From NCBI GenBank assembly GCA_000092065.1, contig CP000590.1: 64,000 bases of DNA; one strand, given 5' to 3'. The translations under genes and the position numbers were made by a program. Origin of the DNA: Ostreococcus lucimarinus. Taxonomy: Eukaryota. The stretch's first letter is position 1. Each line of letters begins with the position of its first letter. Of this stretch, positions 3,025-60,363 are shown one piece after another. Under the pieces are notes generated by a model. That model had not been told where the DNA came from, ran no database searches, and saw nothing but the letters and a program-made list of their open reading frames with translations.

Positions 3025-3877
3025 TTACGCATATTGCGCTGCGGCGGCGTTTTGCTTCTTGTAATCGTACATCGTACCGGCAGTGGCGACGATGATAGAG
3101 AACGCGATGAAGAAGCTCATCGTGCCGACGAGCGCTTGCGGCAAGCGGTCGTAGGTGACGACTTCGAAGGTGCAAGAAGAATCGTCGCCGTATCGCACGT
3201 AGCCGCTGGAGTCCGATTCCAAGACTTGGATAAAGTACTTGGCCGGCGCGATGTTCAACGGGAGCGGGATGTCGACGTTACCAGTCGCCGACCCGCCCGT
3301 GATGCCCGCTTTGAGATAGTCGGCCTCGACCACGGTTTGCTTGCATCGCTTGTTCTTGTTGACGATGTCTTTCTTCTTGCGCCACGGCTTGGAGGCGAGT
3401 TCGGAGTCGTCGTAGCACAACTTCACCATCATCGTGTTCCCCGACGTCGTGGAAGCACCGGTCCACGCCACGTTGATGGAGTTCAAACCACCCTGCGCTT
3501 TCTACGAACGTGAAAAACAAATAATCAAGTCAGTCTTCGAATCACGAACGAAATCGCCAGCGTCGCCGCGCCCGACCCCCAAAGGACACTCGCGCCGGTC
3601 GAACGCTTATCCGCCCTCGCGTCGTCTCCGCCCGCGCGTCGTCCCCACGCCACCCACGCGTCCACTCGCGCGTCGAGCGCGCGCCCGAATGCGTTATTTC
3701 TCGCGCGGTCGCGCGCACACGCACCGAACCAGCCGCGCACGCCCCGCCGTCGATCGTCGTCGTCACGCCGAGCGTGTTCGACGACATCTCGCTGTACTTG
3801 GTGAACGCGTGCGCGCCGTCCGCGAGCATCGCCGTGGCGGCGAGACCACCGATCAAGAGCTTCTTCAATTCAACCAT
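3025..3877 (-). CDS. NAR2: NAR2/NRT3 high-affinity nitrate transporter accessory protein. Two exons, join(3025..3501, 3725..3877) on the minus strand, 209 aa.
   Basis: Exon 2 carries the NAR2 signature VKLCYDDSELASKPWRKKKD (plant KLCYA...WRKT) and a C-terminal TM helix SFFIAFSIIVATAG. Exon 1 encodes a signal peptide (MVELKKLLIGGLAATAMLADGAHA). The intron runs 3502..3724 with donor GTGCGTGTGCG, branch ACTGAC (minus strand 3534..3529) 25 nt before the AG and a polypyrimidine tract. An in-frame TAG sits just upstream of exon 2. Confidence 0.75.
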
Positions 3878-4249
3878 CGTCGTTCGTGCGTCGTTCGCGC
3901 GTCGTCGTCGTCGTCGCGGGCGCGTCGAGGAGTGTCGACATCGGCGCGACGCGCGGCGTTTCGGGACGCCAAGCGTCGCCAAAGGGCGACCGTTGGTGAC
4001 CCTTCGTTCCAAGCGTCACACGGCTAAACATCGTTTATATACGCGCGTCGACCCGGTTTATTTTATTAACTATTACGCGTACGCGTGTAAGTTGTATTTT
4101 TACCTTGAATACGTAAAAACACGATGAGGGTTTCGTGAATGTTTTATGCGTCGTCGCGACGGGACGCGACGCGGTGCGACGCCGCGCGTCACTCCACAGC
4201 GCGTCAGCGAGCACGCCGCGACCTCGAATCGCGACAGCGCACGCGCGAA
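3878..4249. promoter_or_regulatory. Bidirectional promoter shared by divergent NAR2 and NRT2. It holds an AT-rich core at about 4020-4140 with TATA-like cgtttatatacgcg and ttattttattaactatta.
   Basis: Only 372 bp separate the two ATGs (3877 minus, 4250 plus). It is an AT-rich island in otherwise >65% GC sequence. The same NAR2/NRT2 head-to-head arrangement is known from Chlamydomonas. Confidence 0.45.
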
Positions 4250-5958
4250 ATGGCGATCACTAAAGAATTCAATGTCCCCGTGGACAGGTGCGTGTGGTTC
4301 GAGGCGCGCGCGAACGTGGGGGGGGGTTAAAGCGACGACGATGCGTCGCGGTTGTGTCGAAACGACGTGGTCGAATCGAGCGCGTGTGCGGTCGCGCGCG
4401 ATGGCGACGCGGCGCTCGAACGCGTCGATAACGATGAAAGATATATTTGTTTATGCTTTCATGCCCGCGAGACTGACGTGTAACGCGCGGTGCCGTCGTA
4501 CGTGGCCACAGCGAGCACAAGGCGATGAAGCTGAACGTCTTCAGCTTTGATCGCCCGCACCACTTGTCCTTCCACATGTCCTGGTTGGGTTTCTTCATCT
4601 CTTTCGTCTCGACGTTCGCGGCGGCGCCGATGATTCCGGTGATTCGTGAAGACTTGGGTCTCACGAAGCCGCAGCTCGGGAACGCTGGTTTGGCGGCGGT
4701 GACGGGTACTATTATTTGCCGCGTGCTGATGGGTACGGTGTGCGACCTCATCGGCCCGCGACTCGGTTTGTCGGTTATTCTTTTGGCCACCGCGCCCTTC
4801 TGCTTCGCCATGGCCATGGTGCAAGGCTTCGAAGGTTTCCTGATCTGCCGTTTGGGCATCGGTCTGGGTCTCGCCACGTTCGTGGCGTGCCAGTTCTGGA
4901 TGTCTTGCATGTTCAACAGCAAGTGCGTCGGTCTCGCCAACGCGACCGCCGCGGGCTGGGGTAACTTGGGCGGCGGAGTCACGCAATTCTTGATGCCGGG
5001 CATCTACGCCATCTGCTACTCGGCGACCAACAGCCGTGCGTTCACTGCCTGGCGTTGGGCGTACATCTTCCCGGGCATGTGCCACACCGTAGTCGGTTTG
5101 ATGGTCATGTACCTCGGCCAAGATTTGCCGGATGGTAACTACAAGGTGCTCACGACTTCGGGCGCGCTCGAAAAGAAGTCCTCCATGAAGGTCAACTTGA
5201 TCGGCATGAAGAACTACCGCATGTGGTGCATGGTCGCCACCTACGGTTTCTGCTTCGGCGTTGAACTCACGATGAACAACATCGTCGCCGGTTACCTCTT
5301 TGATCAATTCGGCGTCTCCCTCTCTGTCGCAGGCGTGTTGGCGTCTTGCTACGGTATGATGAACTTGTTCGCCCGCTCCGTGGGTGGCATCATCTCTGAC
5401 TGGTCTTCTAACCGCTTCGGTATGCGAGGACGTCTTTGGACTTTGTGGTCCACCCAAACGCTCGAAGGTGTGCTGTGCATCTTCATGGGTCTCTCCAAGG
5501 ACAACTTGGGCGCCACCATCGCGTTCATGGTGTTCTTCTCCATTTGCGTGCAGGCGTCCGAAGGCGCTTCTTACGGTATCGTGCCGTTCATCTCCCGCCG
5601 CGCTCTCGGTGTCGTCTCTGGTTTCATCGGTGCTGGCGGTAACGCTGGTGCCACCATCGCCACCGCCGCCTTCTTCACCAAGGATTCCATTGAGACGTAC
5701 GAAGGTCTCCAGTACCTCGGTTACACCGTCATCGGCGTCACCGCTTTGGTCATCCCGATTCACTTCCCAATGTGGGGCTCCATGTTCTTCCCGGCATCCA
5801 AAACGGCCACGGAAGAGGACTACTACATTCACAACGAGTTCACTCCGGAAGAAATCAAAGCTGGTCTCGCCGCTCCGGTCCAAAAGTTCTGCAACAACTC
5901 TCGCAACGAGCGCCCGGTTTGGAAGCGCGAGCAAGATGCGGTTGAAGCCTCCGCGTAA
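4250..5958 (+). CDS. NRT2: NRT2 high-affinity nitrate/nitrite transporter (MFS nitrate-nitrite porter family). Two exons, join(4250..4287, 4512..5958).
   Basis: 12 TM helices and the AGWGNLGGG NNP signature. Exon 1 (MAITKEFNVPVD) splices so that the junction reads PVDSEHKAMKLNVFSF...HLSFHMSW, matching the conserved NRT2 N-terminus (PVDSEHKA...FHLSW). The intron 4288..4511 has donor GTGCGTGTGG and branch ACTGAC at 4472..4477, 32 nt before the AG at 4510-4511. Confidence 0.85.
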
Positions 5959-6122
5959 TTCTTTTTTACTCTCGCGTCGCAAGAGTGCATCGTTTATAAA
6001 AAATCACCTCTACGTAGTGTGTAACATAACTCTTATTGCAAACTCTCCACGAACAGCCGACGTCTGGGGCGACGCGCGAAATTGATCAACAAATTGTCTT
6101 CCTACAAATTCAACTCTACGCT

Positions 6123-7550
6123 CTATCGCTGCCCGCCTTCGGCGGACGGTCCCACTTCGAGTCTACGCTGCACCTCCATCAATATGTGCGTCCCGATCCC
6201 CGCGGCGAAACCAATCGCCGTACTCTTAGTCGCGATCGTCACCGCAGCGGTCACCATGACGAGATACTTCTGGTGCTGATGCCATCCGGGTTTCGTCTTC
6301 AAGCCCATGCCAATGAGCTCCAAACTCGACGAAAATAACATGACTCCTAATATAGTCTTCGGAAAGTGCTCCAAGAGCTTCGTTAATGAGCTCCCGAATA
6401 ATAAACCGAGGGCAAGCTTGCACAAGCCGAGGAACACGATCGATCCTCCGCCGCGAGCACCGAAAGCGTACTGAGCCGCTAAACCGCCAGCGCCGTGGCA
6501 CGACGGCATCGCGCCTACCCAACACCCGACGATATTCATCATCCCCACGCTCGTCGCCACTGAGCTCGGCGACGCGGGAAAATCAGGAAACAATTCTTTG
6601 CTCAGTGCACACACGGAGATCACTGAATTTAACGTCGTCAATGGAAGTTGCGGGACGCCGGCGTTTACGATGCCGCGCTTTGCCTCGGACCACGACGCGC
6701 TCAAAATCTTTGGCGTGGCTGGTCCAAACTTCAATCCGCTCAGCGCGCCATCTTTCGTCATGGCCATGGTGATACCGAGCACAACGAGAATAAGCGCCAT
6801 GGGAATGTAGTGACGCATGCGTTTCCGACGTTCGCCATCCGCCTCAAGTTCGCCTCGCTCGTCGCGAATTGCCGGATACTCGGGCGAGCACACATACATG
6901 ACCGCACACATGGCCACGATGGTGACCAGTAGGCCATCCGTGCCAAACATCCCTCGCACCACACTAGCATCGCTCGACGTGTACACCGCGAGTAAAAACC
7001 CTTTCCTGGCGAGCAACAATCCAAGTCCCACTTGCATGCCTTGCACAACCGCGAGCGGCGTCACTTTATTAAACGTGTCCATCAATCTCGTCGTTCCAAG
7101 CACCAACACGATGGAAGACACGAACAAACCGGCGACCATAATTTCGTTGACATTCAACGGCGACTCTCCCAACGCCACCGCCGCGATCGTCTTCATCGGC
7201 TGCACGGGCATGGGTATCTCGTACAGAAACGCCGTGAGCACGTTGTACAATCCCGTGAACACGATTGTCGTCCCCGCGTCCACGCCACACTCGATCGACA
7301 TCCCGACGAGCAGCGGTAAAAAAGTCCCGAGATCTCCAAGCGCGCCGCTCGCCTCTCGCCAACCGAACTCGCGCCAAAACTTTTCCGCGCGCGCGCCGAC
7401 GACCGCCGCCGTCCCGCCGACGCGCCCTCTCGTCGCGCGCAGCTCCGACGCCGTCGTCTCGCCGCGCTTCTCGCGCGCGCCCGCGTCCACGACGCGAGCG
7501 TCATCATCGTCGTCCGCGATGCGAATCTCGTACTCACCCGCGGACGTCAT
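6123..7550 (-). CDS. MOT1: MOT1-family molybdate transporter
   Basis: Both MOT1 signature motifs are present, GDLGTFLPL...PVQPMKTIAAVA and FGAMPSCHGAGGLAAQYAFGARGG, in a multi-TM protein of 475 aa. ATG confirmed at 7550. Confidence 0.8.
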   Translation of the reverse strand: MTSAGEYEIRIADDDDDARVVDAGAREKRGETTASELRATRGRVGGTAAVVGARAEKFWREFGWREASGALGDLGTFLPLLVGMSIECGVDAGTTIVFTGLYNVLTAFLYEIPMPVQPMKTIAAVALGESPLNVNEIMVAGLFVSSIVLVLGTTRLMDTFNKVTPLAVVQGMQVGLGLLLARKGFLLAVYTSSDASVVRGMFGTDGLLVTIVAMCAVMYVCSPEYPAIRDERGELEADGERRKRMRHYIPMALILVVLGITMAMTKDGALSGLKFGPATPKILSASWSEAKRGIVNAGVPQLPLTTLNSVISVCALSKELFPDFPASPSSVATSVGMMNIVGCWVGAMPSCHGAGGLAAQYAFGARGGGSIVFLGLCKLALGLLFGSSLTKLLEHFPKTILGVMLFSSSLELIGMGLKTKPGWHQHQKYLVMVTAAVTIATKSTAIGFAAGIGTHILMEVQRRLEVGPSAEGGQR

Positions 7551-7770
7551 CGCGCGAGGGCGTCGTGACCTTTCGCGTCCCGCGAAAAGCGCTTTTTCGC
7601 GTGGATGCTCGACCCGCGCGCGTCGCCGCGCGCGCGGATGCGCGAGGAACGCTCGAGGAGATCGTGTTTAACCCAACCCGTGCGCGTGCGCGTCGCGCGC
7701 GAGGCGTAAGCGTCGCGCGCGCTGACGTGTGTGGACGCGAAATGAGAACGTGGGGACGCGCGCGCGCGCG

Positions 7771-7812
7771 CGCGACGAAGACGAAGACGAAGACGAAGAC
7801 GAAGACGAAGAC
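7771..7812. repeat. (GAAGAC)x7 hexanucleotide microsatellite in the MOT1 / CNX2 intergenic spacer
   Basis: gacgaagacgaagacgaagacgaagacgaagacgaagag read directly from the sequence. Confidence 0.9.
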
Positions 7813-7842
7813 GAAGAGACGATGGAAATCTCGCGCAACAGG

Positions 7843-9078
7843 CTAACCCCCTATCTTGATCATCGCGCGATTATCCTGCGCCGCGAGCTCGTGCATGCCC
7901 GCGTGCGCGGCCTTCTTTCGCTTGACCGCAGCGCCGATGACGCGCAAAATGTCGTCGTCCGACGCGCCCGAGCGCATGGCGTCTCGCAAGCTCACCTCTG
8001 AATTGCCGAATAAACAAACCTTCAAATTACCGTCCGCCATGATGCGTAAGCGGTTACATCCGCCGCAGAATGAGTTCGTCATGCTCGTGATGAAGCTCAC
8101 CGAACCTTTGTGACCGGGCAGGGTGAAGTTCTTCGCGACTTCCTCGCGCGGGTCGTCGACGCGCGTCAACGCGCCGTACGCCTCTTCTATTCTCGCGCGC
8201 ATCTCGGCGTACGACACCATCTTCTTCGTGCTCCACTTATTGCCGTCGAACGGCATGTACTCTATAAATCTCACATTAATCGGCTTGTCTTTCGTCAACG
8301 CCACGAAATCAAGCAGCTCGTCGTCGTTTTGCCCGCGCATGACGACGCAGTTCACCTTGACGCTCTGAAATCCGAGTTCGCACGCCTTGTCGACGCTCGC
8401 CAGTACCCGATCGTGCCCTTTCCTCCGCGTCATGAACTCAAACTTCGCCGGCACGAGCGTATCAAGCGACACATTCAAACGCGTCAATCCGTTCGCTCTA
8501 AGCGCGTCTAACCGCTTCGCGAGCGTCACTCCGTTCGTCGTGACGCTCGTCTCGCGCACCCCCGGCGTCCCGCTCACCCGTCGCACCACGTCTTCCAAAT
8601 CTTTTCTCAGCGTCGGCTCACCCCCGGTGAGCCGCACTTTATCCACCCCAGCCGCGGCAAATATTTTAACCACCCTCCCGATCTCATCCGCGGTGAGCAA
8701 CTCATCCTTCGCCGTCAAATCCACGCCGTCCTCGGGCATGCAATACCCGCACCGCAGGTTGCACTTTTCCGTCAAGCTGATGCGCAGGTAATTATGCCCT
8801 CGCCCGAACGCATCCACGAGTTCCGGCGCGACGTTCGCCGTTCGCGACGTCATCGCGCGCGCGGCGACTCGCGGATCGATTCGCGCCCTCGCCCGCGCGC
8901 CCTCGCCCGCGCGCGTCGGTTCCTCCACCGCTCGCCGCGGTGCACTTTTTGTCCCGAGCGCGCTCACCGCGTCCTCGCGCGCGCGTTCGACGCCCTGATC
9001 GCCGCGCGCGATCGCCGCGAGCGTCGCGCTCGCGCGCCGCGCGCCCGGGCGCGTCCACGCGCCGCGCGCGAGCGACAT
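7843..9078 (-). CDS. CNX2: Molybdenum cofactor biosynthesis protein A (GTP 3',8-cyclase, CNX2/MOCS1A-type radical SAM enzyme). The ORF extends to 9324, but the ATG at 9078 gives a 75-aa R/A/S-rich mitochondrial-type presequence and avoids overlap with the divergent gene starting at 9155.
   Basis: The radical-SAM core aligns with E. coli MoaA from [27 protein letters not shown] through GGEPTLRKD to the C-terminal FeS cysteines CGGCNRLR. The start choice is inference; alternatives are 9324 or 8853. Confidence 0.8.
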
Positions 9079-9154
9079 CCTCTGACGTCGCTTCGCGTCG
9101 TTTCGCCCTGTCGACCGGACCGCACCGCGCGTCACTCCGTCGCGCGCGCTCGCG

Positions 9155-9937
9155 ATGTCGCGCGCGCTCGAGGACGACCACGGCTCGTTCGCCGTGATAG
9201 ATCTCGTCGCGCACCTGTACCGCGGCGGCGCGGAAGATCGAGGCGCGCTCGCGAAGATTTGGTCGCGGTACAGCGATGCGACGGTTTCAGAGCGGAAGAC
9301 GACAGGTTTCGAGATGGTGCGCATGCATCACGCGACGCTGACGAGGATGTTTCGAGACGGTGCGTGCGACACGCTCAATTTTCGCGAGCGCGACGCGCGT
9401 CGGGACCGAGGGCGCGCGGTCGAGGGACGGGACGCAAAACGGCGCGAGACGGGACGACGACGAGGACGGGCGAGCGGGACGCGACGGACCGACTGACGAC
9501 GACGACGCGTTCGAACGCGAAAAGACCCGGATGGGGATTACTTAGATATCGAAGACGTGCGCATGACGTGGGAAGAGTTCGTGGACGCGCTGAGAGACGC
9601 CACGGGGGCGTCGGCGGATGAACCGGCGTCGCCGGAGAACGCGAAGTCGTACGACGCGCTCGAACGACCGGTGATGCAAAGAAATCAATCGTTCTCGAAC
9701 TTGGCGAAGGATTTGGAGGAAGTCATCGCCGCCGCGCGCTCGCCCGGGACGAGCGCGGACAACACGCCCGAAGGTTCGACGCGTGGGATTCAGAGAATTT
9801 CATCCTCTGGGATGCTTTTGGGCATCGGCTGCTCGAGCCGCGAACCGTCGCTTCGAGGCGGCAACGCGTTTCACGCGGGCATGACCGTGCGCTCGGAAGA
9901 TTTGAAGAGTCGCCTCGAGAAGAACGCGACGCAGTGA
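9155..9937 (+). CDS. Hypothetical protein of 205 aa. Two exons, join(9155..9359, 9525..9937). Function unknown; it lies inside the Moco/nitrate cluster.
   Basis: Exon 1 has unbiased composition up to ...TLTRMFRD. The GTGCGTGCGAC donor at 9360 and the ACTGAC branch at 9492..9497 (25 nt before the AG at 9523-9524) join it in phase to the ORF continuing [16 protein letters not shown]... No recognisable domain. Confidence 0.45.
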
Positions 9938-10070
9938 TCGTTTCCGCGAAATGCGCCGCATCAATACGCGTAATACGTCAATATAATCTATTGTACCTCG
10001 CTCCCGCGCCGAAAAGCGCAGCCAAAAGTCGCTTCGCCCCACAAGTCGTCGGCGTCGACGCGCGCGCGTC

Positions 10071-11447
10071 ATGCCCGCCGAAACCGAAACCGCGCGCAAG
10101 TACCACATCGTCGGCGACTACGCCACCGCGCTGAACCCTCGAAACGACGCGCGAAGCGTGGAAAAATACGCGCGACACTTGGTGCTGCGTCCCCACGGCG
10201 CGCGCATCCAACGCGCGCTGTGCGCCGCGCGCGTCCTCGTCGTCGGCTGCGGTGGCCTCGGGTGCCCGTGCGCGATATATCTCGCCGCCTCGGGCGTGGG
10301 AACGCTCGGATTGTGCGACGCGGACGCGGTGGAGCTGAGCAACTTGCATCGACAGGTGGGACACTCGACGGCGGCGACCGGGACGTCGAAGGCGAAGTCG
10401 TTGGCGGCGCGGTGCGAGGGATTGAACGATGGCGTTCGAGTCGTGGTGCGAGAAACGTTCGCGACGACGGAAAATGTGATGGAACTTGTGGCGGGGTACG
10501 ACTTGGTGTGCGATTGTAGCGATAATCCGAGGACGAGGTATTTGTTGTCGGACGCGTGCGCGAGCGCGGAGATTCCGCTCGTGAGCGCGGCGTGCGTGGG
10601 ATTTGAAGGGCAGCTCACGGTGCTGTGTGGCACGCGAGCGTGGAATGATGACGATGAATCGTTTGGGGAGTTTGCGCCCGCACCGTGTTATCGATGTTTG
10701 TTTCCGACGCCGCCGGCGTCGGGAGACGCCGGGACGTGCGGGGCGTCTGGCGTGCTCGGACCGCTGCCTGGCATCGTGGGTACTTTTCAAGCGCTCGAGG
10801 CCATGAAAACGCTGGCTGGGGTAGGGGAGTCCATGCGAGGAAAAATGTTAACGTTCGACGCGTTGAGCGCGAGACCGACGATGACGTTGAACATGCGGGA
10901 ACAGCGAGACGCCGCGTGCGCGTGTTGCTCGACGTTGACGTCTCACGACGGACGCTTCGACGTCGCGACGTACGATTACGACGCTTTCTTATCGTCGACG
11001 CCGTGTCCGATGCGCGGAAGAAAAGCGAGACGCGGTGGCGTTGATGTGAACGCGCCGCCGAAGTTTGGGGCGCGAGAAATGCCGGAGCGCGGCGGCGGCG
11101 GCTGGCGACGCGTGGATGCGAAAGCGGCGACGACGTACGTCAAAGATGAGGGCGTCACCGTAGTCGACGTGCGTCCCAAGCACATGTACGACGCAGCGCA
11201 CATACCTGGATCTATTTCGTTACCAATAGAAACGCTCGACGTCGAGACGTGGAACGGCGCCGTGGGCGCGGCGGTTGAAGGATACCGTCTGTGCTTCGTG
11301 TGCGCGGGAGGCAACAACAGCCAAAGAGCGGCGCAATGGTTCGTGGACGCGAAAGTCGCCACCGCTGCCCCGGCGAGCGTCGTCGACGTTTGTGGCGGTC
11401 TCGCCGCGATGCGCGACGCGGGCTACGACGTCCCGAGACTCGATTGA
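10071..11447 (+). CDS. MOCS3: MOCS3/CNX5 adenylyltransferase-sulfurtransferase (MoeB/ThiF E1-like domain plus C-terminal rhodanese domain)
   Basis: ThiF nucleotide-binding motif VLVVGCGGLGCP, zinc CxxC pairs, and a rhodanese domain with active-site Cys in CFVCAGGNNSQRAAQW. ATG at 10071. Confidence 0.85.
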   Translation: MPAETETARKYHIVGDYATALNPRNDARSVEKYARHLVLRPHGARIQRALCAARVLVVGCGGLGCPCAIYLAASGVGTLGLCDADAVELSNLHRQVGHSTAATGTSKAKSLAARCEGLNDGVRVVVRETFATTENVMELVAGYDLVCDCSDNPRTRYLLSDACASAEIPLVSAACVGFEGQLTVLCGTRAWNDDDESFGEFAPAPCYRCLFPTPPASGDAGTCGASGVLGPLPGIVGTFQALEAMKTLAGVGESMRGKMLTFDALSARPTMTLNMREQRDAACACCSTLTSHDGRFDVATYDYDAFLSSTPCPMRGRKARRGGVDVNAPPKFGAREMPERGGGGWRRVDAKAATTYVKDEGVTVVDVRPKHMYDAAHIPGSISLPIETLDVETWNGAVGAAVEGYRLCFVCAGGNNSQRAAQWFVDAKVATAAPASVVDVCGGLAAMRDAGYDVPRLD

Positions 11448-11655
11448 TTAAAATTGTTTCAACGCGCGGCGAGCACTTTATTTCTACAACAACACGCCTA
11501 CGATTCCACGCGCGCTTGCACGATCTCCGGTCGTTCACCCTTGGATTCCGCGGTTTGCATCGTCGCGAGCGCCGCCTCGACGACGCCCTCGGTGAGTTCG
11601 CCGCTCGCGCTCATCGCGTCCACCACCTCCTGCGCCTCTTCGGGCGATTGCGAGT

Positions 11656-12339
11656 TCAGAACTTTGTAGTAATTCGAAAAGTCGCGGCGACGATCGCCCC
11701 ACCCACGATTCGCCGCCACCACCGTCCACGCCGCGGCTTCTCGCCCTTATCCGACGCGGCGTCGCGCGTCGAGAGCGCGACCTCCGCGACGACGTCCTCT
11801 TCCGACCGCCCCTGCGGGCATCCGTTCGCCTCGAGATATCGCAACACGCCCTCGCTCGCGCCGCCCGCGTACTTGACCCAAAAGTCTCTGTCTTTCGCCA
11901 ACCACGCCGGCACCGGCGACGCGCGCGTCGTCGTCTCGCGCTCCGTCTCCGCCTCCGTCTCCGCCTCCGCCTCCGCCTCCGCCTCCGCGTCGCCCTCGCG
12001 CGTCACCACCCCGATCTGAAAATCTCTCAGCTGCGTCCACGCCCGCGCGCTGTGAATCTCCTCGAACTCATCGCTCGCCTCTTTCCCGAGCGCCCGCGCG
12101 ATCGCCAGCGCCGTCGACACCTGCCCCGCGTTGTTGAATCCCGGGTGCGTCGTCGCGAACGCCGTGATGTCGAACACGCGCTCGCGCACCACGATCCATC
12201 CGTCCGCGAGGCGCGCGTGCGCCGCGACGTCCTCGCGCGTGTACTTTCGCCACCTCGCGCGCTCGTCGTCCGTCGGCGCGCGCCGGAGCGCGTCGACGAC
12301 GGCGAGGTCGACGGCGACGTCGCGCCCGGACGCGTGCAT
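11656..12339 (-). CDS. Cytochrome b5-domain protein with a C-terminal tail-anchor helix, transcribed divergently from nitrate reductase. The listed ORF extends to 12798 through R-rich sequence.
   Basis: Heme-binding b5 fold YTREDVAAHARLADGWIVVRERVFDITAFATTHPGF...DEFEEIHS with both His ligands. An (EA)n linker is encoded by a (CTCCGC)n repeat at about 11941-11990. C-terminal hydrophobic tail RRGRWWRRIVGGAIVAATF. The C-terminal frame is uncertain: an alternative frame (ORF 11498..11722) also looks protein-like. Confidence 0.55.
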   Translation of the reverse strand: MHASGRDVAVDLAVVDALRRAPTDDERARWRKYTREDVAAHARLADGWIVVRERVFDITAFATTHPGFNNAGQVSTALAIARALGKEASDEFEEIHSARAWTQLRDFQIGVVTREGDAEAEAEAEAETEAETERETTTRASPVPAWLAKDRDFWVKYAGGASEGVLRYLEANGCPQGRSEEDVVAEVALSTRDAASDKGEKPRRGRWWRRIVGGAIVAATFRITTKF

Positions 12340-12658
12340 CGTCGCGCCGTTCGAGCGCGGACGACCGGACGCGTCGTCGGCGGCGCGCGGACGCGCGGCC
12401 GCGCGCGCGCGGACGCGTCGCGCGTCGCGCGCGCGCGTCGCGCGTCGCGTCGTGGCGCGACGACGTCGACGGGCGCGAAGCGTCACTTTGGTAAAAAAGG
12501 AAAAAATGCGTATGGGCAAACAGTATGACGCTTCGGCGACGCTTGGAGATTCCGAAACGACTCGGTCGACGGCTGGCGTCGACGCGACGCGACGCGCACA
12601 ACGCGGCCCTCGCGCGGTCGACGCGGCGTCGCGAGACTCGAAGCGTCGTCGTCGAGTC

Positions 12659-14324
12659 ATGGCGAACGCCGTCGTCGCGATCGTCGCCGCGGGCGCGGGC
12701 GCGTTCGCGGGCAAGCTGCTCGACGGGAAAAAGCGCGAGACGTCGCGAGGCGCGGACGACGCGGACGACGTCGACTTTAAGACGGACGCGAAGTCCAACG
12801 TCGATCACGCGGCGGCGGCGAAAAAGCATCAGTACCTGGCGCAGAAGTACCCGGAGGTGGACGAGCGAGACTTGAAGACGCCGGATAATTGGGTGAAGAG
12901 GCATCCGTGCGTGCGAGACGCGAGGCGACGCGAACGCGGGACGACGAGGACGCGGCGAACGACGACGGCGCGCGTGACTGACGGTGGTTTGCGTCGATCG
13001 TGGTGATAGGAATTTGATTCGTCTGACCGGGAAACACCCGTTTAACGTCGAGGCGTCGCTTCCGGAGTTGTATGATTACGGATTCATCTCGCCGGTGAAC
13101 TTGCACATCGTGCGGAATCACGGCGCGGTGCCGAAGTGCGATTGGGACACGCACAAGATTAACATTTGTGGCAACGTCCCGAAACCGTTCGAGATCGGTA
13201 TGGACGAGTTGGTGAAAATGCCGAGCGACACGTTCCCGTGCTTGGTGGTGTGCGCGGGGAACCGTCGGAAGGAACAAAACTTGGTCAAGTCGTCGATTGG
13301 GTTCTCGTGGGGGCCGTGCGCCATCGGAAACACGTACTGGACGGGCGTACCGCTGCGAGTGTTGCTCAACAGAGCGGGCATTCATAAGCCCGGTCCGGGT
13401 GCGCGATACGTGTGCTTGGCTGGTCCGCAAAACGAATTGCCGAAGGACTACCCCGATCAAGACGGTGGTCCGGGATCGTACGGCACATCCATCGACATGG
13501 AAACCGCGCTCGATCCGACGTGCGATGTCATTGTGGCGTACGAACAAAACGGTGCCAAGCTTCACCCAGACCATGGATTCCCAGTGCGGGTGATCATTCC
13601 CGGTTACATCGGTGGGCGCATGATAAAGTTTTTGAAGGAGATTAAAGTCACCGACAGAGAGTCAAACAACTTTTATCACTTCAACGATAACCGCGTGTTA
13701 CCGCCGCCAGTTGACGCTGAGCGCGCGACCGAGGAGGGATGGTGGTTCAAGCCCGAGTTCATCATCAACCAACTCAACATTAACGGTGCCATCGCGTACC
13801 CGGCGCCCGAAGAAGTCATTCCCAAGTCGCAAAAGACGTACGCCTTCAAAGGTTACGCCTACTCTGGCGGCGGTCGCAAGGTCATTCGCGCCGAGCTTTC
13901 CTTCGATCAAGGCTTGAGCTGGGAATTGAGTGATATTCACACTCGCGAAGAACCGCGATGGGCCGATTTCAGCTCCGGTGACAAGGCCAGGCACTGGTGC
14001 TGGTGCATGTGGACTCTCGAAGTGCCGATTGAGAAGCTCCTCGACAAAAAGTGCGTCGAAGTGTGCTTCCGCGCCGTCGATCAATCCATGAACAAAATGG
14101 ACGAGCGCCCGACGTGGAACGTCATGGGTATGTTGAACAACCCGTGGTACCGCGTCCGCATCCACCACACGCCCACGGGCGACGTTCGCGTGGAGCATCC
14201 GTGCATCGCCGGTCCGACCCCCGGCGGCTGGATGCAAAAGATGGCGGCTAAGGAACCCACCGGAGAACTTCTCTGGGGCTGGGGCGGCCAAGGCACGCCG
14301 GCCGCGCCCCCGAGAGAAGAATAA
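12659..14324 (+). CDS. NIA: Nitrate reductase, Mo-molybdopterin and dimerisation domains only. Two exons, join(12659..12906, 13010..14324), 520 aa. It stops in hinge 1 with no cytochrome-b5, FAD or NADH domains.
   Basis: NR-specific motifs TPDNWVKRHP|NLIRLTGKHPFN (splice junction), Mo-ligand Cys in LVVCAGNRRKEQNLVKSSIGFSWG, and the dimerisation domain WWFKPEFIINQLNING...YAFKGYAYSGGG...WNVMGMLNNPWYRV...GGWMQKMAAKE, then a stop after about 30 more residues followed by an AT-rich 3' UTR. Intron 12907..13009 with donor GTGCGTGCGAG and branch ACTGAC at 12977..12982. Confidence 0.8.
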
Positions 14325-14485
14325 ATTATTCGTGATGTTTTTCGATTTATTATGACCTCGTGTAAGATTATCACCATCATTCCTTAAGTCTCTCTCTCTT
14401 CGCCGTCGACGCTCGGCGTCGACGCTCGCGCGCCTCACACGCAGCCTCGCGTCCGACTTCGCTTCATCCCACGACCGCGCGCGCG

Positions 14486-14767
14486 ATGGATCTCATATTC
14501 ATCCTCCGTCAATACATCGGCATCGTCCTCTCCATGGCCGCCTTCGCCGGCTTCGCCTTCTGCACCAAACTCGAGCGACGCTTCGACCTCGACCAAACCA
14601 AAATCATTCACGTCTCCGTCGGTCTCGCCGTCGTCGGCCTGCTGTTCCACGAACTGCGCCCGTACAAGCGACAGGCTGGATTGACGTTTAGCAAAGAGCA
14701 GGCCGAGGAGGAGTGGAAGGCGCGCGAGGAGGAGATCGCCGCGGCGAAGACGAAGAAGAAAAAGTAA
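14486..14767 (+). CDS. Small hypothetical membrane protein (93 aa, two hydrophobic helices, Lys-rich tail)
   Basis: A real ATG with unbiased composition, sitting between the NR 3' UTR and the kinase gene. No recognisable family. Confidence 0.3.
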   Translation: MDLIFILRQYIGIVLSMAAFAGFAFCTKLERRFDLDQTKIIHVSVGLAVVGLLFHELRPYKRQAGLTFSKEQAEEEWKAREEEIAAAKTKKKK

Positions 14768-14987
14768 CTTTTCGACGGCGCGCGCGGGACGCGTCGAGTT
14801 CGCCGCTCGAGCGGCGCGGCGCGGCGTCGCGACGCGCGTAGGTTGTAATTCGATTAGCGTCGCGCTCGCGCGCCGCGCGTCCGTCCGCGTCGTCGTCGAC
14901 GGCGTCCGCGAGGCTTCGGGCGCGACGTCGACCCCGCGCCAAGGGACACGAAGAGGCGCGAGGAGACGGCACTCCGCGCCGCGACGC

Positions 14988-16781
14988 ATGGGATGCGCCG
15001 CGTCCTCCGCGAGCGCGTCCGCGCCCGCGAGCGCGCTCGCGCTCGTCGACTTCAACGCGCGATTCGCGGACGAGTACGTCGTGCGGGAGAAAATCGGCGT
15101 CGGACAGCAAGGGACGGTGTACCTGTGCGAGGACGCGGAGACCGGGACGACGCGCGCGATGAAGGAGACGCACATCGGGGTGTTCGGCGCGAACGCGAAG
15201 CGACGAGAGGCGTACTGCGAGATTGAATTGCTGTCGCAGATGCGACATCCGAACGTGGTGAGGATGGTGAAGGCGTACCAGACGAGCGCGGAGGTGCAGG
15301 TGGTCATGGAACACGCCGGGCGAGACACGTTGTTGACGTACCTCGTCGCTCTGGACGACGCCGAGGGGATGACGGAGGAAGAAAAGATGCACATTAAACA
15401 TGAATTGATTCGGCAGTTGGTGGACGCGGTCGCGCACGTGCACTCGAGGGATGTGGTGTTTCGGGATTTGAAGCACGAAAACGTCATGGTCACGAGCGAC
15501 GACGATTTGAGAAACGCGCAGATTAAGCTCGTTGATTTCGGTCGCGCGGCGTCGCTGCGCCGGGAAGATCGACTGAATAATCAGCCACCTCTCGGGACGT
15601 CGTTATTTCAAGCGCCCGAAGTAGAAGAGCGTCGAGAGTATGGACAAGCGGCGGATATGTGGGCCGTCGGCGTCTTCGTTTACTTTTTAGTCACGGGGCA
15701 GATGCCGTTCGAGCACACCGTGGCGGGGCTTTACAAGGTGCTGCGAGGAGAATATGAACCCATGGAAGAGTCAATAAATAAGCACGCGCGCAATTTGGTG
15801 GCTAAGCTTCTCGTGCTCGACCCGGCGAAACGAATCAACGCTGCTCAAGCGAGCACGCATCGATTCTTGCGGCAGAGAAACGCCGCGCACGTGCACGTCG
15901 GCGAGGGCGACGCGCTCAGAGTGCCGAAACACATGGAAAAAGCGGCAAAGAGACAACTCCGAGCGCTCGTGATGCAGGACAGTCTGGAGCTGCACACGGT
16001 GGGATTGCTCGCGGAGAAGCTCACGCCCGAGGATTTGAAGACGCTTCGGCGTTGGTTACGCATGAAGGCGGAAATGTCTGTGCGCGGAGGAGTGGCGAAC
16101 GCGCGCGAAAAAAATGCATCTCATAGTATCTCTCAGCGACAGTCTCCGGATGCTTCAATCCGAGCGGGTCACACGTACACCGACGAACTCCAGGCACACG
16201 TGGCGCTCAACGCGTTGTACAATGAAATGACGAAGGATCAAGGGAGTGAGTCCAACAGTAGAGAAGTGAGCTTCCATGGCGGCGCACTTACGAAAACGCA
16301 GTCGTACCAGAAGCTCACGGAAGCACTGGAAAATTTAGAAGAAATGAGTTCTGGTGACGAAGCCGATGTGCACAGGCCGTCTCCGCCAAAGAAGATTAGC
16401 AAAAGCTCGCTGAGCGACGCCGCGCGGCAAGAGTCCGCACAAAAGACTACTGGCACGAGTGATATCGCTACAAGCCGCAGTTTCGTCGGCTACGCGCATC
16501 AGAGCGGAATGTGTACGGTGGATGAGCTCATCACTGCTTGCATTAGCGCTGGCCTTCAATCCGTGGCGGACGAGTTGCAAACCGTTCGCGACGATTTGAA
16601 AAAAGAACGCTTGGCGAAGCTCGCGGCGACGGGCGCGGATACGCAGACGCAGAACGAGAGCGTCCTTCTCGACATCATGCTCTTCAGATACGAAGACTTA
16701 CTTGCGAAGGTCGAGAACGCGCACTTAGACCAAGTAAAGGACTGGTCAGTTCGAGCGGGAGTGATGGAGAACGGGCTGTAG
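14988..16781 (+). CDS. Ser/Thr protein kinase (CAMK/CDPK-related catalytic domain) with an N-terminal MGCAAS myristoylation/palmitoylation motif and a long non-catalytic C-terminus
   Basis: Kinase subdomains GVGQQGTVY...AMK, HRDLKHENVMV, DFG, APE. ATG at 14988. No EF hands. Confidence 0.8.
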   Translation: MGCAASSASASAPASALALVDFNARFADEYVVREKIGVGQQGTVYLCEDAETGTTRAMKETHIGVFGANAKRREAYCEIELLSQMRHPNVVRMVKAYQTSAEVQVVMEHAGRDTLLTYLVALDDAEGMTEEEKMHIKHELIRQLVDAVAHVHSRDVVFRDLKHENVMVTSDDDLRNAQIKLVDFGRAASLRREDRLNNQPPLGTSLFQAPEVEERREYGQAADMWAVGVFVYFLVTGQMPFEHTVAGLYKVLRGEYEPMEESINKHARNLVAKLLVLDPAKRINAAQASTHRFLRQRNAAHVHVGEGDALRVPKHMEKAAKRQLRALVMQDSLELHTVGLLAEKLTPEDLKTLRRWLRMKAEMSVRGGVANAREKNASHSISQRQSPDASIRAGHTYTDELQAHVALNALYNEMTKDQGSESNSREVSFHGGALTKTQSYQKLTEALENLEEMSSGDEADVHRPSPPKKISKSSLSDAARQESAQKTTGTSDIATSRSFVGYAHQSGMCTVDELITACISAGLQSVADELQTVRDDLKKERLAKLAATGADTQTQNESVLLDIMLFRYEDLLAKVENAHLDQVKDWSVRAGVMENGL

Positions 16782-16885
16782 TTAATATGTATGATTTCGA
16801 AATGAATCACAACACGACGAAGCTAAGCGCTAACACTCTTTTTTGTTTTTTCGATGTTTTTGCTTTGTAATGTACTCTCACGCTC

Positions 16886-42818: not shown

Positions 42819-43436
42819 GAACGCATTCAACGCATCCGCGTCGGCTAAGCCTACCCTCGCGCGTTCCGCTCGTCAGTCTCTCGCGTCTCTCGCTCGTCTC
42901 TCGTCTCTCGTCTCTCCTTCGCCTCGTTCCATTCGCACCTGAATCCCCGAGCACATCGTCGACGTCCGCGTACTCCGACACCCCCTACGCCTCGTTCGCG
43001 CGCCGCGCTTCGCCGTCAGTCGCCTCTTCGGTTTCGCCGCGTCTCGCGCGTCTTCGTCCTTTAAAATCTCCAAAAAATCTCCGCATAAAGCCATCTGTCG
43101 AATCGTCCGTCGTCCGTCGTCTCGCGTTCGCCTCGCGTCTCGCACGCACCGCGTCTCGCAGCGATCGAAACAGTTCCTCCGCCAGCGCGTCGTCGTCGCG
43201 CGAGGTCGTCGCCGTCGCCGTCGTCGCGCGTCGTCGTCGCGTCGACATGTCGAGCGCGAATTCCGAAACGTCGCGTCGCGCGTCGCGTCGCGCGCGCGAT
43301 GGGACGCGCGCGACGCGCGATGGGACGCGCGCGCGTCGCGCGCGTTCGCGCGGCTCGACGGCGCCGCGGTGCGCGCGCGTGTGACGCGCGCGACGCGACG
43401 ACGTCGGTTCGAACGACACTTCGCGACCGCGCGCGC

Positions 43437-54700: not shown

Positions 54701-57319
54701 ATGAGCGAAGACACCGAAACCTTCGCCTTCCAGGCCGAGATCAACCAGCTGTTGTCGTTGATCATCAACGTGCGTCTCGACGCCGACCGCGACCGCGCGC
54801 GCGCCGCGAACGATCGCGGCGTCGCGACGCGCATCGCGATGGCGCGTCGCGGGACGACGGCGCGTCGAACGCATCGACGCGCTCGCGACGCGAGCGAACG
54901 ACTGACGAGGAAATCGTGGATTCGAAACGATCGCAGACGTTTTATTCCAACAAGGAAATCTTCTTGCGCGAGCTCATCAGGTGCGAGGCGCGAACGGCGA
55001 CGCGATTCGCGCGCGATGGCGATCGACGCATCGCGATGCGATGGCGGCGGTTGACTTTACGCGATGACGATGCGCGCGGGCGGGCGCGGGGGGGACGGAC
55101 GCGAGCGCGCGATGCGTGAGAATTCGTTTCGACGGGCGCGCGCGCGGGCGAGGACGCGCGCGCGAGGGATGGGGTAGAAAACGCGCGATCGTGATTCGGG
55201 CGTGCGTTTTCGAGTCATCTTCCAGAAGGGTGAAGAAGGCGCGACGGCGAGGACGAGCGGCGGCGCGCGCGAGCGAGACGCTTGGACGAACGGTGTGACT
55301 GACGACGAACGGTGTGTACGCGCGAATAATAGTAACTCTTCCGATGCGCTCGATAAGATTCGATTCGAGGGCTTGACGGATAAGTCCAAGCTCGAGTCCC
55401 AACCCGAGCTGTTCATTCACGTCGTGCCGGACAAGACGAATAACACGCTGACCATCATCGATAGCGGCGTGGGGATGACCAAGGCGGATCTCGTGAACAA
55501 TCTCGGTACGATCGCGCGTTCTGGTACGAAAGCGTTCATGGAAGCGCTCACCGCGGGGGCGGATATCTCGATGATTGGCCAGTTCGGCGTCGGTTTCTAC
55601 TCGTCGTACTTGGTCGCCGAAAAGGTCGTCGTGTACACCAAGCACAACGACGACGAGGGCTACCGATGGGAATCTCAAGCCGGTGGTTCGTTCACGGTGA
55701 CCAAGGACGCGTCCGCGAACGAACTCGGTCGTGGTACGAAGATGGTGCTTCACTTGAAGGATGATCAGCTCGAGTACCTCGAGGAGCGCCGCCTGAAGGA
55801 TTTGGTCAAGAAGCACTCTGAATTCATCTCGTACCCGATTTCGCTTTGGACCGAGAAGACGACCGAGAAGGAAGTCTCCGACGACGAAGCCGAGGAGGCT
55901 GGCGAGGAAGAAGAGGGCAAGATCACCGAAATCAAGGACGAGGGTGACGAGGTCAAGGAGAAGAAGACGAAGACGATCAAGGAAGTTTCTCACGAGTGGG
56001 CCATCATGAACAAGCAAAAGCCGATTTGGATGCGCGTGCCGGAAGAAATCACCAAGGATGAGTATGCTGCGTTCTACAAGTCGCTCACCAACGATTGGGA
56101 AGAGCAACTTGCGGTGAAGCACTTCGCCGTCGAAGGTCAATTGGAGTTCAAGTCGGTGCTCTTCGTCCCGAAGCGCGCGCCGTTTGATATGTTCGACGGC
56201 AAGAAGAAGTCGAACAACATCAAGTTGTACGTCCGTCGCGTTTTCATCATGGACAACTGCGAGGACATCATTCCGGAATACTTGGGCTTCGTTAAGGGCA
56301 TCGTCGACTCCGAAGATTTGCCGCTCAACATTTCTCGCGAAATGCTCCAGCAAAACAAGATTCTCAAGGTTATCAAGAAGAACATCGTCAAGAAGTGCCT
56401 CGAGATGTTCAATGAAATCGCCGAGAACAAGGATGACTACACCAAGTTCTACGAATCTTTCGGCAAGAACTTGAAGCTCGGTATTCACGAAGATGCGCAA
56501 AACCGCAGCAAGATCGCTGAGTTGATCCGATACTCTTCCACCAAGTCTGGCGAAGAGCAAACGTCGCTCAAGGATTACGTCACGCGCATGAAGGAGGGCC
56601 AAAAGGACATCTACTACATTACCGGCGAATCCAAGAAGGCGGTCGAGAACTCTCCGTTCATCGAGAAGCTCAAGAAGCGTGGCTACGAAGTTCTCTTCAT
56701 GACCGATCCGATCGACGAGTATGCGGTGCAACAGCTCAAGGAGTACGACGGCAAGAAGCTCGTCTCCGTCACCAAGGAAGGTCTGGAGCTCGACGAAACC
56801 GAGGAAGAGAAGAAGCAAAAGGAGGAAGTCAAGGCGCAATACGAGAACTTGTGCCGATTGATCAAGGACATCTTGGGCGACAAGATCGAGAAGTGCGTCG
56901 TCTCCGACCGCGTCGTCGACTCCCCGTGCGTGCTCGTCACCGGCGAATACGGCTGGAGCGCCAACATGGAGCGCATCATGAAGGCGCAAGCGCTTCGCGA
57001 CAACTCCATGGGTAGCTACATGTCGAGCAAGAAGACGATGGAAATCAATCCGGATAACTCCATCATGAAGGAGTTGCGCAAGCGCGCCGATGCGGACAAG
57101 GGTGACAAGACTGTCAAGGATTTGGTCCTCCTCGTATTCGAAACTGCGATGCTCACCTCTGGCTTCTCCTTGGACGAGCCGACGACGTTCGGCGGTCGCA
57201 TCCACCGCATGATCAAGCTCGGTCTCTCCATCGATGAGGACGACGCCCCGGCGGTTGATGACTTGCCCGCGCTCGAGGAAGAAGTCGACGAAGGTTCCCG
57301 CATGGAAGAAGTCGATTAA
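54701..57319 (+). CDS. HSP90: Cytosolic HSP90. Three exons, join(54701..54769, 54937..54980, 55333..57319), 699 aa.
   Basis: Exon 1 [23 protein letters not shown], exon 2 [14 protein letters not shown](S), exon 3 [14 protein letters not shown]... to the C-terminal MEEVD. Both introns have GTGCG donors and ACTGAC branch sites (54901..54906 and 55298..55303), 28 and 27 nt before their AGs. Splice phases are consistent. Confidence 0.9.
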
Positions 57320-57565: not shown

Positions 57566-58860
57566 ATGGCGCCCGATCGCCGACCCCCCGACGGCAAATG
57601 GGCGCGCGCGCGCATCACGCGGCCGACGTTCGGCGCCATGGCGTCATCCATAGGCGCTGTGGTCGTCCCCGTCGCGATCGCGATGGCGCTCTGCGTGTGG
57701 TTGGTGACGCTGTTGCGCGGTGACGCCACCGAAGACGCGGAGGCGACGAGCGGTGGGGTGATCTCGGCGGTGTACACCGAAAAGGTACGACGATTTAAGA
57801 CGCGCGCGCGGCGAACGGACGATTGAACGACGCGTGGGATGGGAAAACCTGATGTTGGCGCGCCGCGAGAGGGTGTTGAGACGCGGAAACGCGACCTCAT
57901 CGACGATGATACTGACGCACGCGATGTGATTTCGCGAGTAAACAGAGCGGTGATAGCGAGTACGTCAAATTTACGGGTAGTGTGGAGAACGCGGCGGTGT
58001 TCGTGGGGTTCATTACCGCCATGACGTTTGCCCTTTTTCTGCTCTTCAAGTATCGAATGGGCAAGGTGATTTGGGCGTACATGGGCTTCAGCGGATTGTT
58101 GATATTCGGCGTGCTCGGGGGAAATATTCTCATGCGAGTGCTGCAAAAGTTAGATATAGCGATAGATATGGTGACGGTGGGGCTGCTGATGTGGAATTTC
58201 TCAATCGGCGGCGTGCTGATGACATTTTTCTGGCACGGACCTCTGGTGGTGAAGCAAGGATATTTAATTTGTGTGTCCACGATCGTGTCGTTTTACTTCA
58301 CGCAGATTCCCGAGTGGACGACGTGGTCGCTTTTGATCGCGATGGCGCTGTACGATCTGTACGCCGTGCTCACGCCGAACGGGCCGCTCAGGTTGATGGT
58401 GGAGTTGGCGCAAGAGCGCGACGAAGACATTCCCGCGCTCGTGTACGAATCAAGGGGCGGAAGTTTCGGCGACGCGCGCGCTCGCGCGCGGCAAAATTCT
58501 GGTGTATCGGGCGAGGCAGTCGGGGCCGATGGGTCGCCGTACGATCCGTCGTTGGAAGCCGACGACGAAGACGGTGAGTTCGGACTTCCCGATTCCATCA
58601 AACTCGGTCTCGGAGATTTCATCTTCTACAGCGTCCTCGTCGGTCGAGCGGCGATGTGGTCTCCGATCACGTGCGCGTTTTGTTTCATCGCCGTGCTGCT
58701 TGGTTTAGTGCTCACGCTCGTCGCCCTCGGCATGTACGGCAAGGCGCTTCCCGCGCTCCCCGTGTCCATCGCCCTGGGCTCGGCGACGTACTTTCTCTCT
58801 CGATTTTTCCTCGAGCCCGCGATCGTGCAGTCCTACGCCAGGCACTTCCTGTGCGAATAG
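57566..58860 (+). CDS. Presenilin (GxGD intramembrane aspartyl protease). Probably two exons, join(57566..57784, 57946..58860).
   Basis: Catalytic motifs LYDLYAVLTPNGPLR (YD), KLGLGDFIFYSVLVG (GLGD) and PALPVSIALG (PAL). Exon 1 encodes TM1 ending ...VYTEK. The intron has a GTACGA donor and branch ACTGAC at 57911..57916. Confidence 0.7.
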
Positions 58861-59045
58861 CGCGCGACTCGAATATTTCCCGACGACTCGCGTCGTCGTC
58901 GCCATCCGTAGAATGTAAACTTAGCCAGCCGCGTATTCCGCGCGTCGCGTCCGCCGCGCCCCGACCGGCCCTGGACGACGCGTCCCCACACCCGCGCGCG
59001 CGCCCGGTCGCGCCGATCGCCCCGTCGCGCTCGATTTCGACCGCG

Positions 59046-59557: not shown

Positions 59558-59597
<40 letters not shown>

Positions 59598-59600
59598 TAG
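59046..59600 (+). CDS. Hypothetical membrane protein with an organellar-type presequence and a C-terminal poly-Asp tail
   Basis: MSLVVARASTRAPTRAG... presequence, one TM (IANWVFLAFVVLLLF), and a (GAC)n microsatellite encoding D13 at about 59560-59597. Confidence 0.35.
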
Positions 59601-59727
59601 TTAAATTTGTTTGTTGCTTGTATTAGACGTAACATCGTAGGCGGAGGTATTTCCCGCGGCGTCGTTCCGCGGCTCGTCGACGAAGCCGAGCGCGCCGCGC
59701 GCCCCTCCTCACATTCGCGCACGCACC

Positions 59728-60363
59728 ATGGTCAAGCAAATCGCCAGCGCGGAAGAATTCGCCGCCATTAAAGCGGCCGGTAAACCGGTGCGTGCGTCGA
59801 CGCGCGATCGCGCGCGAATCGACGTCGACCGCGACGCGATCGCACTCGGCACCGTCTCGGAATGCGAACGCGCGATCGACGCGCGCGACGCGACGTTCGT
59901 CGAGCGAGGCGCGCGCGCGCGGGTCTGAAACGTGCGCGTCGTCATCGCGCGTCGATGCGCGGCGTCGCGCTCGCGCTCCACGCGTCTGGAACGATGCATT
60001 CGAACGCGTCGCGCGGCGGCGATCGATCGATCGCCGCGCGAAAACCGACGCGAGCCGAGCGAAGACTGACGACGTCACGCCGCGAACGCGCGTCGCGCGA
60101 AACAGGTCGTCGTTGATTTCACCGCGAGCTGGTGCGGACCGTGCAAGTCCATCGCGCCGTTCTTCGAGGAATTGGCGGCCAAGTACCCAGAAGTTGAATT
60201 CGTCAAGATCGACGTCGACGAACTCGAAGACGTCGCGGCCGAGTGCGGAATCTCCGCGATGCCGACGTTCCAAGTGTACTCCAACGGCGTGAAGGTTTCT
60301 GAAATGACTGGTGCGGACAAGGACAAGCTGTCCGCGCTCGTCAAGGATGCCAACGAGTTGTAG
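59728..60363 (+). CDS. TRX: Thioredoxin (h-type). Two exons, join(59728..59787, 60106..60363), 106 aa.
   Basis: Exon 1 MVKQIASAEEFAAIKAAGKP and exon 2 VVVDFTASWCGPCKSIAPFF... join in phase to give a canonical 106-aa thioredoxin. Intron has donor GTGCGTGCGTC and branch ACTGAC at 60065..60070, 33 nt before the AG at 60104-60105. Confidence 0.9.

Follow-up and report, generated by a model that had tools for sequence, protein, structure and literature searches.

Eleven introns found in a 64,000-nt stretch of the Ostreococcus lucimarinus genome (contig CP000590.1 of assembly GCA_000092065.1; the whole stretch is called the window below) share a stereotyped set of splicing signals: a GTRCG donor, a single ACTGAC branch motif, and an AG acceptor 19 to 33 nt beyond it. 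We are nearly certain that they are ordinary U2-type GT-AG spliceosomal introns, of the 'constrained' class that characterises the intron-poor bulk of the O. lucimarinus genome, outside the atypical part of chromosome 2. This signature has already been published for O. lucimarinus (Irimia & Roy, PLoS Genet 2008, PMC2483917), and the present result is a faithful rediscovery. Seven of the introns had been placed by a sequence-only reading of the window. They are listed here with coordinates that follow transcription, from the first base of the intron to its last, and with the gap given as the number of nt between ACTGAC and the acceptor AG.

NAR2 intron, 3724..3502, minus strand: 223 nt, phase 0; donor tcg|GTGCGTGTGCG, branch aagACTGACttg, gap 25, acceptor CGTAG.
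NRT2 intron 1, 4288..4511, plus strand: 224 nt, after a first coding exon of 38 nt; donor cag|GTGCGTGTGG, branch gagACTGACgtg, gap 32, acceptor CACAG.
Gene 9155 (9155..9943, 205-aa protein) intron, 9360..9524, plus strand: 165 nt, phase 1; donor acg|GTGCGTGCGAC, branch ccgACTGACgac, gap 25, acceptor AAAAG.
Mo-domain gene ('NR') intron, 12907..13009, plus strand: 103 nt; donor tcc|GTGCGTGCGAG, branch gtgACTGACggt, gap 25, acceptor GATAG.
HSP90 intron 1, 54770..54936, plus strand: 167 nt, after a first coding exon of 69 nt; donor aac|GTGCGTCTCG, branch acgACTGACgag, gap 28, acceptor CGCAG.
HSP90 intron 2, 54981..55332, plus strand: 352 nt, after an exon of 44 nt; donor cag|GTGCGAGGCG, branch gtgACTGACgac, gap 27, acceptor AATAG.
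TRX (thioredoxin) intron, 59788..60105, plus strand: 318 nt, after a first coding exon of 60 nt; donor ccg|GTGCGTGCGTC, branch aagACTGACgac, gap 33, acceptor AACAG.

On recount, the seven donors of the sequence-only reading, its single ACTGAC per intron and its gaps (25, 25, 32, 28, 27, 25 and 33 nt) were all exact. It had announced sizes of 100 to 350 nt and very short first exons, and we measured 103 to 352 nt, with first exons of 38, 60 and 69 nt.

Several lines of evidence indicate that these segments are spliced out. By exact-sequence look-up, the spliced products of five genes were identical to GenBank proteins of O. lucimarinus CCE9901: HSP90 (699 aa, XP_001419938.1), TRX (105 aa, XP_001419941.1), NRT2 (494 aa, XP_001419922.1), NAR2 (209 aa, XP_001420099.1) and the product of gene 9155 (XP_001419923.1). 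Exact identity with GenBank or UniRef entries of this strain was found for six window-encoded proteins. For the Mo-domain gene, GenBank has a partial model, XP_001419925.1, with the junction listed above. Splicing also restored conserved protein sequence across the junctions, as in HSP90 (..LSLIIN|), TRX (..AAGKP|VVVDFTASWCGPC) and NRT2 (..VPVDS|EHKAMKL), and the spliced HSP90 N-terminus aligned without gaps to the solved HSP90 N-domain 4x9l_A over both of its junctions. At the RNA level, one transcript contig (L008, from SRR847308) matched 12650..12907 followed by 13010..14387 at 100% identity, the Mo-domain intron being removed, and the TRX intron was absent from five contigs from five samples (L094-L098). 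The spliced NAR2 product was on record in JGI/IMG and Logan assemblies, and is obtainable only from spliced RNA. The claim that these are real introns with stereotyped donor, branch and spacing is thus borne out by GenBank-identical products and by intron-less contigs. The further claim that they re-annotate split genes was right as to the junctions but overstated, as all seven introns were already present in the 2007 GenBank annotation.

When the remaining ACTGAC sites of the window were checked, four further introns with this motif were found, one each in the genes for PRP17 and presenilin and two in a DP transcription-factor gene.

PRP17 intron, 37142..37252, plus strand: 111 nt, in frame and stop-free; donor tcg|GTGCGCGCGAC, branch tggACTGACgga, gap 21, acceptor CGCAG.
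Presenilin intron, 57785..57945, plus strand: 161 nt, phase 0; donor aag|GTACGACGAT, branch gatACTGACgca, gap 27, acceptor AACAG.
DP intron 1, 42985..43149, minus strand: 165 nt, phase 0; donor gcg|GTGCGTGCGAG, branch gcgACTGACggc, gap 28, acceptor CGTAG.
DP intron 2, 42851..42938, minus strand: 88 nt (94 nt with a second TAG at 42845), phase 1; donor cag|GTGCGAATGG, branch gagACTGACgag, gap 19, acceptor GGTAG.

The PRP17 intron has the layout GTGCGCGCG .. GGACTGACGG .. 21 nt .. CGCAG, and is invisible to open reading frame (ORF) analysis because it is in frame and contains no stop codon. Exactly 37142..37252 was missing from transcript contigs L090 and L091, which stem from different runs, and the spliced 583-aa PRP17 is on record. 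The GenBank model, XP_001419932.1 (500 aa), starts downstream of the 111-nt intron and so misses it; conversely, it excises 30 nt (∼37642..37671) that were kept in both transcripts. We conclude that this annotated 30-nt intron is false. Retention of the true intron would add 37 residues to the protein without truncating it and, more speculatively, could provide a means of self-regulation for this splicing factor.

The presenilin ORF lacked the first 62 positions of the Pfam Presenilin profile, and an upstream exon joins it by removal of 57785..57945. Transcript contig L009 joins position 57784 to 57946, GenBank entry XP_001419939.1 has the same junction, and the spliced 377-aa product is on record. 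Together with the results above, this establishes precise removal from RNA at the given junctions, as GT-AG introns, for the Mo-domain, presenilin, PRP17 and TRX genes (by transcript contigs) and for NAR2 (by its recorded spliced product). Spliced contigs were obtained from runs SRR847308, SRR28369057, SRR28369095 and DRR699210.

The two DP introns agree with the signature, leave the reading frame intact and are supported by conservation between species. The position of intron 1 was kept in two other Ostreococcus-like genomes, with GACTGACG 27 and 19 nt before the AG: the first (L092) reads ..RDA|GTACGCGCGAC, then GCGACTGACGA, 27 nt and CGCAG, and the second (L093) reads GTGCGCGATGG, GGGACTGACGA, 19 nt and CAG. 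The exon 2 peptide GV.(E/D/G)YA.VDD(V/I)LG was conserved in both. At the place of DP intron 2, L092 had an intron (aag|GTGCGTGTGCG, GGCGACTGACGAAG, 33 nt) and L093 had none. In the window, the acceptors at 42851 and 42845 of this intron both preserve the reading frame.

Taken together, the 11 introns (88 to 352 nt long) were very uniform. All had GT..AG ends and exactly one ACTGAC, which was part of GACTGACG in nine of them. The donor was GTGCGTG in 6 cases, GTGCG in 10 and GTRCG in all 11. The gap between ACTGAC and AG ranged from 19 to 33 nt, which places the branch 22 to 36 nt from the 3′ splice site. AG dinucleotides inside the gaps were all either part of GAG or no more than 6 nt from ACTGAC, so that one rule describes the acceptor throughout this sample of 11: from 19 nt past the motif onwards, it is the first AG not preceded by G. 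The sense strand was G-rich (G 40%, C 27%, A 20%, T 14%), with a GC content of 58-71% and no polypyrimidine tract. The observed/expected ratio of CpG was 2.1 in the introns and 1.7 in the window. All 11 introns begin within 310 nt of the start codon, and a 5′ bias of this kind is usual in intron-poor genomes. The length of the GenBank record (613,585 bp), the GC content of the window (57-66%) and its 11 introns in ∼38 genes all fit the bulk genome, and none of these identifies the chromosome.

Such short motifs might co-occur by chance in GC-rich DNA, the introns then being artefacts of forced homology. Indeed, no motif was over-represented in the window as a whole: ACTGAC occurred 16 times against 20.3±4.7 expected from shuffled sequences, GTGCG 304 times against 357, and GTGCGTG 23 times against 15.9, which is not an enrichment either. 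Moreover, ∼60% of random sites have a GTGCG within 400 nt upstream. The composite pattern behaved differently. Defined as G-ACTGAC with a GTGCG 40 to 400 nt upstream and a non-GAG AG 19 to 35 nt downstream, it was found 11 times in the window, against 1.7±1.2 (maximum 5) in 300 dinucleotide-preserving shuffles. Chance is already refuted by the transcript contigs from which exactly these introns are missing, and it also runs against the identity of the products with GenBank proteins and the conservation of positions and motifs across species. We give it practically no credit.

The sequence-only reading had also proposed the motif pair as a practical intron predictor. Of the 16 ACTGAC hexamers in the window, 11 are branch sites and the remaining five are coding or antisense. 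Among the latter, the one at 35901 looked like a branch site, but falls in coding sequence (RLT) next to a PG_binding_1-like domain; those at 31205 and 31265 (inside and antisense to a Sec7 gene), 44925 and 16750 are not intronic either. A strict motif rule gave 10 true hits, one miss and one false hit, the Sec7-antisense site 31265. The predictor works, as illustrated by the PRP17 intron absent from GenBank, but its signal is carried by ACTGAC and the spacing. With one GTGCG in about every 420 nt of each strand, the GTGCG half adds little specificity; even for GTGCGTG, only 6 of the 23 sites are donors. Two generalisations had to be given up, both on account of the presenilin intron: a GTGCG donor was claimed for every intron, whereas this one starts with GTACGACG (GTACGA), and the branch was said to be always gACTGAC, whereas its context here is tACTGAC.

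For introns with other signals, a relaxed scan (GT[AG][CA]G .. CT[GA]AC .. AG, with open-frame tests) was made. It returned 145 candidates, nearly all within well-supported ORFs. A codon-usage log-odds map of the non-coding segments was too noisy for use. The relaxed scan and Pfam coverage checks of the window gave no convincing intron lacking ACTGAC, introns not having been listed independently of the motif for every gene.

We then compared the introns with their counterparts in metagenome contigs. Seven contigs (L001-L007) were 99.4-100% identical to the window and of no use for footprinting; divergent loci were taken from a scan with NRT2, which gave 80 loci, whose taxon names were inferred from identity and GC content. 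Nearly all 80 loci shared the codon position of NRT2 intron 1, and four were intron-less. In a first table, some near-identical contigs also appeared to have an intron-less NRT2, but DNA alignment showed the intron to be there. Among 18 distinct Ostreococcus-like sequences, 17 had ACTGAC in this intron, 24 to 59 nt before the AG, and the remaining one had GCTGAC. Their donors were GTGCGTG, GTGCGCG, GTGCGCT or GTACGCG, and the intron interiors could not be aligned. For gene 9155, ACTGAC was kept in the orthologous intron of five other Ostreococcus-like lineages, with GTGCGTG, GTACGCG or GTATGTG donors. In three orthologues of this intron (L014, L023 and L024) the branch motif was present as overlapping tandem copies, ACTGACTGAC or ACTGACTGACTGAC. 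The NAR2 intron was found with GACTGACG in L024, L036 and L037, and was absent in L019, L023 and L031. The presence of an intron thus varies among close Ostreococcus-like lineages, with the NAR2 intron absent from three clades and DP intron 2 from one (L093). In the orthologous introns of NRT2, gene 9155, NAR2 and DP, the position, a GTRCG-type donor and ACTGAC were kept while the interior was unalignable: motif and spacing are conserved under divergence.

These comparisons bear on the idea that a mobile family comparable to the introner elements of Micromonas (Simmons et al. 2015, PMC4540971) gave rise to the introns, which would then share GTGCG and ACTGAC by descent and not by selection. 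Micromonas belongs to the same algal order, and the presence of its introner elements also varies between close lineages, as is the case here for NAR2 and for DP intron 2. In addition, the Mo-domain intron (12907..12928, plus strand) and DP intron 1 (43128..43149, minus strand) share their first 22 nt, GTGCGTGCGAGACGCGAGGCGA, where ∼0.01 such matches are expected in shuffles. Apart from this 22-mer, however, an all-against-all blastn of the 11 introns gave only CG-rich matches of 12 to 17 nt. Introner elements form repeat families with full-length similarity, whereas the window introns share splicing signals only, range from 88 to 352 nt, and keep nothing but these signals in their orthologues. 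Conserved signals with divergence elsewhere is the pattern expected from selection on the signals, and we regard a mobile origin as highly improbable. As for the 22-mer itself, an extended donor preference or a common origin are both possible; it is not found in the DP orthologues of L092 and L093.

The ordinary spliceosome would accommodate these signals as follows, judging from established splicing biochemistry. The standard 5′ end of U1 would pair with GUGCGU, with position +3 in a wobble pair and +4 mismatched. The GUAGUA of U2 would pair with ACUGAC with one G-U pair, leaving the penultimate A bulged, and the 3′ splice site would be reached by distance-limited scanning from the branch. 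The misfit of GTGCGTG to standard U1 at +4 speaks for another explanation, raised in PMC2483917, namely a second specialised splicing machinery with co-evolved small nuclear RNAs (snRNAs), apart from that of the weak-signal introns of chromosome 2. Against it, the spliceosomal RNAs are single-copy in O. tauri (PMC2483917), and each of five Mamiellales has one strong U1 candidate with a standard pairing region (bioRxiv 10.1101/2022.06.08.495308). This latter study found GYGCGY donors across Mamiellales, with no compensating change in the U1 pairing region. In the window, Rfam detected no RNA family, and so no snRNA gene, and no C-box motif was present in any of the 11 introns. Nor was there any match to U12-type signals: neither the donor [AG]TATCCTT nor the branch TCCTTAAC at 10 to 15 nt from the 3′ splice site was seen in any of them. 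A dedicated machinery seems very unlikely to us.

Beyond Ostreococcus, other Mamiellales-like loci, less identical and of lower or higher GC content, have NRT2 intron 1 at the same codon, with donors of GTRCGY or GTAAGT type, but differ at the 3′ end. ACTGAC was found in this intron in 0 of 13 low-GC sequences and 1 of 6 high-GC sequences, as compared to 17 of 18 Ostreococcus-like sequences. Instead, CTAAC- or CTCAC-like motifs were present, followed by pyrimidine-rich 3′ tails (pyrimidine fractions of 0.62 and 0.77 respectively, versus 0.56 in Ostreococcus-like sequences). One speculative reading, which we think rather unlikely, is that at fixed orthologous positions the Ostreococcus lineage replaced a 3′ end assisted by a pyrimidine tract with a branch-anchored mode: a near-invariant GACTGACG, no tract, and an acceptor that is the first AG, GAG excepted, from 19 nt onwards. 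The tract-assisted mode may be the older one, still in place in the Micromonas-like and Bathycoccus-like loci. Since U1 and U2 RNAs are reported to be unchanged, such a shift would have to concern proteins, for instance SF1/BBP, U2AF or U1C.

Coming back to the assignment to the constrained U2-type class, nothing was found that contradicts the introns as such. A few points nevertheless weigh against it or limit its reach. The acceptor rule is drawn from 11 introns, one of them with AAG. The branch adenosine is a candidate deduced from the motif. As to the DP introns, no transcript was found, full DP models are not on record, a homology search yielded no transcript-derived N-terminus, and intron 2 has two possible in-frame acceptors. 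Finally, the published frequency of 87% implies that ∼1/8 of introns lack ACTGAC, and such introns were possibly missed here.

The surroundings of these genes deserve a few comments. Positions 1..16800 of the window hold the known cluster of nitrate-assimilation and molybdenum-cofactor genes, in the order nitrite reductase with fused redox domains, NAR2, NRT2, a MOT1-type molybdate transporter, MoaA/CNX2, gene 9155, MOCS3/ThiF, cytochrome b5 and the NR-like Mo-domain gene. The last two lie side by side:

Cytochrome b5 gene, 11656..∼12340, minus strand: a separate gene adjoining the Mo-domain gene.
Mo-domain gene, coding sequence 12659..14324, plus strand: 520 aa after splicing; molybdenum and dimerisation domain of nitrate reductase (NR) type, no haem or FAD domains.

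Among solved structures, the Mo-domain product is closest to the nitrate reductase Mo domain 2bih (E 2.6e-103; sulfite oxidase reaches ∼1e-62). The label 'NR/NIA' given to this gene on first reading was correct for the type of its molybdenum domain, but the protein has no haem or FAD domain: the canonical 967-aa NR, with Mo, cytochrome b5 and FAD domains, is encoded upstream of the nitrite reductase gene, beyond the start of the window. The Mo-domain and cytochrome b5 genes look like a 'split' NR-like pair within the nitrate-assimilation cluster. Between the MOCS3/ThiF-like and cytochrome b5 genes, at 11468..11682, alignments break in natural-population contigs that are otherwise 99.4-99.7% identical, which indicates a variable insertion/deletion of ∼170-210 nt.

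Some transcript contigs span neighbouring genes: L009 (57197..58938) runs from the 3′ end of HSP90 into presenilin, L090 (35801..38969) from gene 35677 into PRP17, and L094-L098 (59245..61703) from TRX into a convergent DUF760 gene. This suggests either overlapping transcription units in a very compact genome, or merging during assembly. At the end of the window, a UCH gene seemed to lack its Cys box, but its reading frame simply runs off the window.

In practical terms, the signature corrects public gene models in the window, which is of modest but real value. In PRP17, the true N-terminal exon and the intron confirmed by transcripts are added and a false 30-nt intron is removed; the DP gene gains two 5′ exons, and the Mo-domain model, partial in GenBank, is completed to 520 aa. 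These corrections support a re-annotation of Ostreococcus genomes by ACTGAC and spacing, and the signature would help to flag eukaryotic genes split by prokaryote-style gene callers in marine metagenomes. As a discovery it carries little weight, donor, branch and spacing having been published in 2008 and the U1 question addressed in 2022.

It remains to compare these introns with known classes. In EST-confirmed introns of O. lucimarinus outside chromosome 2, Irimia and Roy found ACTGAC in 87.15% and GACTGACG in 66.5%, an 'atypical consensus GTGCGTG' donor, a broad peak of branch-AG distances at 20-35 bp, and a weak preference for CGCAG acceptors (PMC2483917). The window introns come from the same organism and agree in donor consensus, ACTGAC and GACTGACG, branch-AG range and CGCAG preference, with no difference of substance; the higher proportions seen here (11/11 ACTGAC and 9/11 GACTGACG) are within sampling error of the published 87% and 66.5%. 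Chromosome-2-type Ostreococcus introns, in contrast, measure 40-65 bp and are weak in both donor and branch (PMC2367439, PMC2483917), whereas those of the window range from 88 to 352 nt and have strong signals. The sequence-only reading had tied the rigid branch site to intron-poor compact genomes, and the same conclusion was reached for O. lucimarinus in PMC2483917, which reads the signature as a convergence of intron-poor genomes on strong signals. The closest likeness in this respect is with hemiascomycete yeasts, which are also intron-poor, with a near-invariant branch, a strong non-standard donor, introns crowded at the 5′ end, and a U1 without compensating change. The signals themselves differ: yeast introns have a GTATGT donor and a TACTAAC branch, while in Ostreococcus the donor is GTGCGT, the branch ACTGAC (not ACTAAC), and the intron is GC-rich (58-71%) and G-rich. 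As argued in PMC2483917, the resemblance between the two is one of convergence, and not of shared ancestry.

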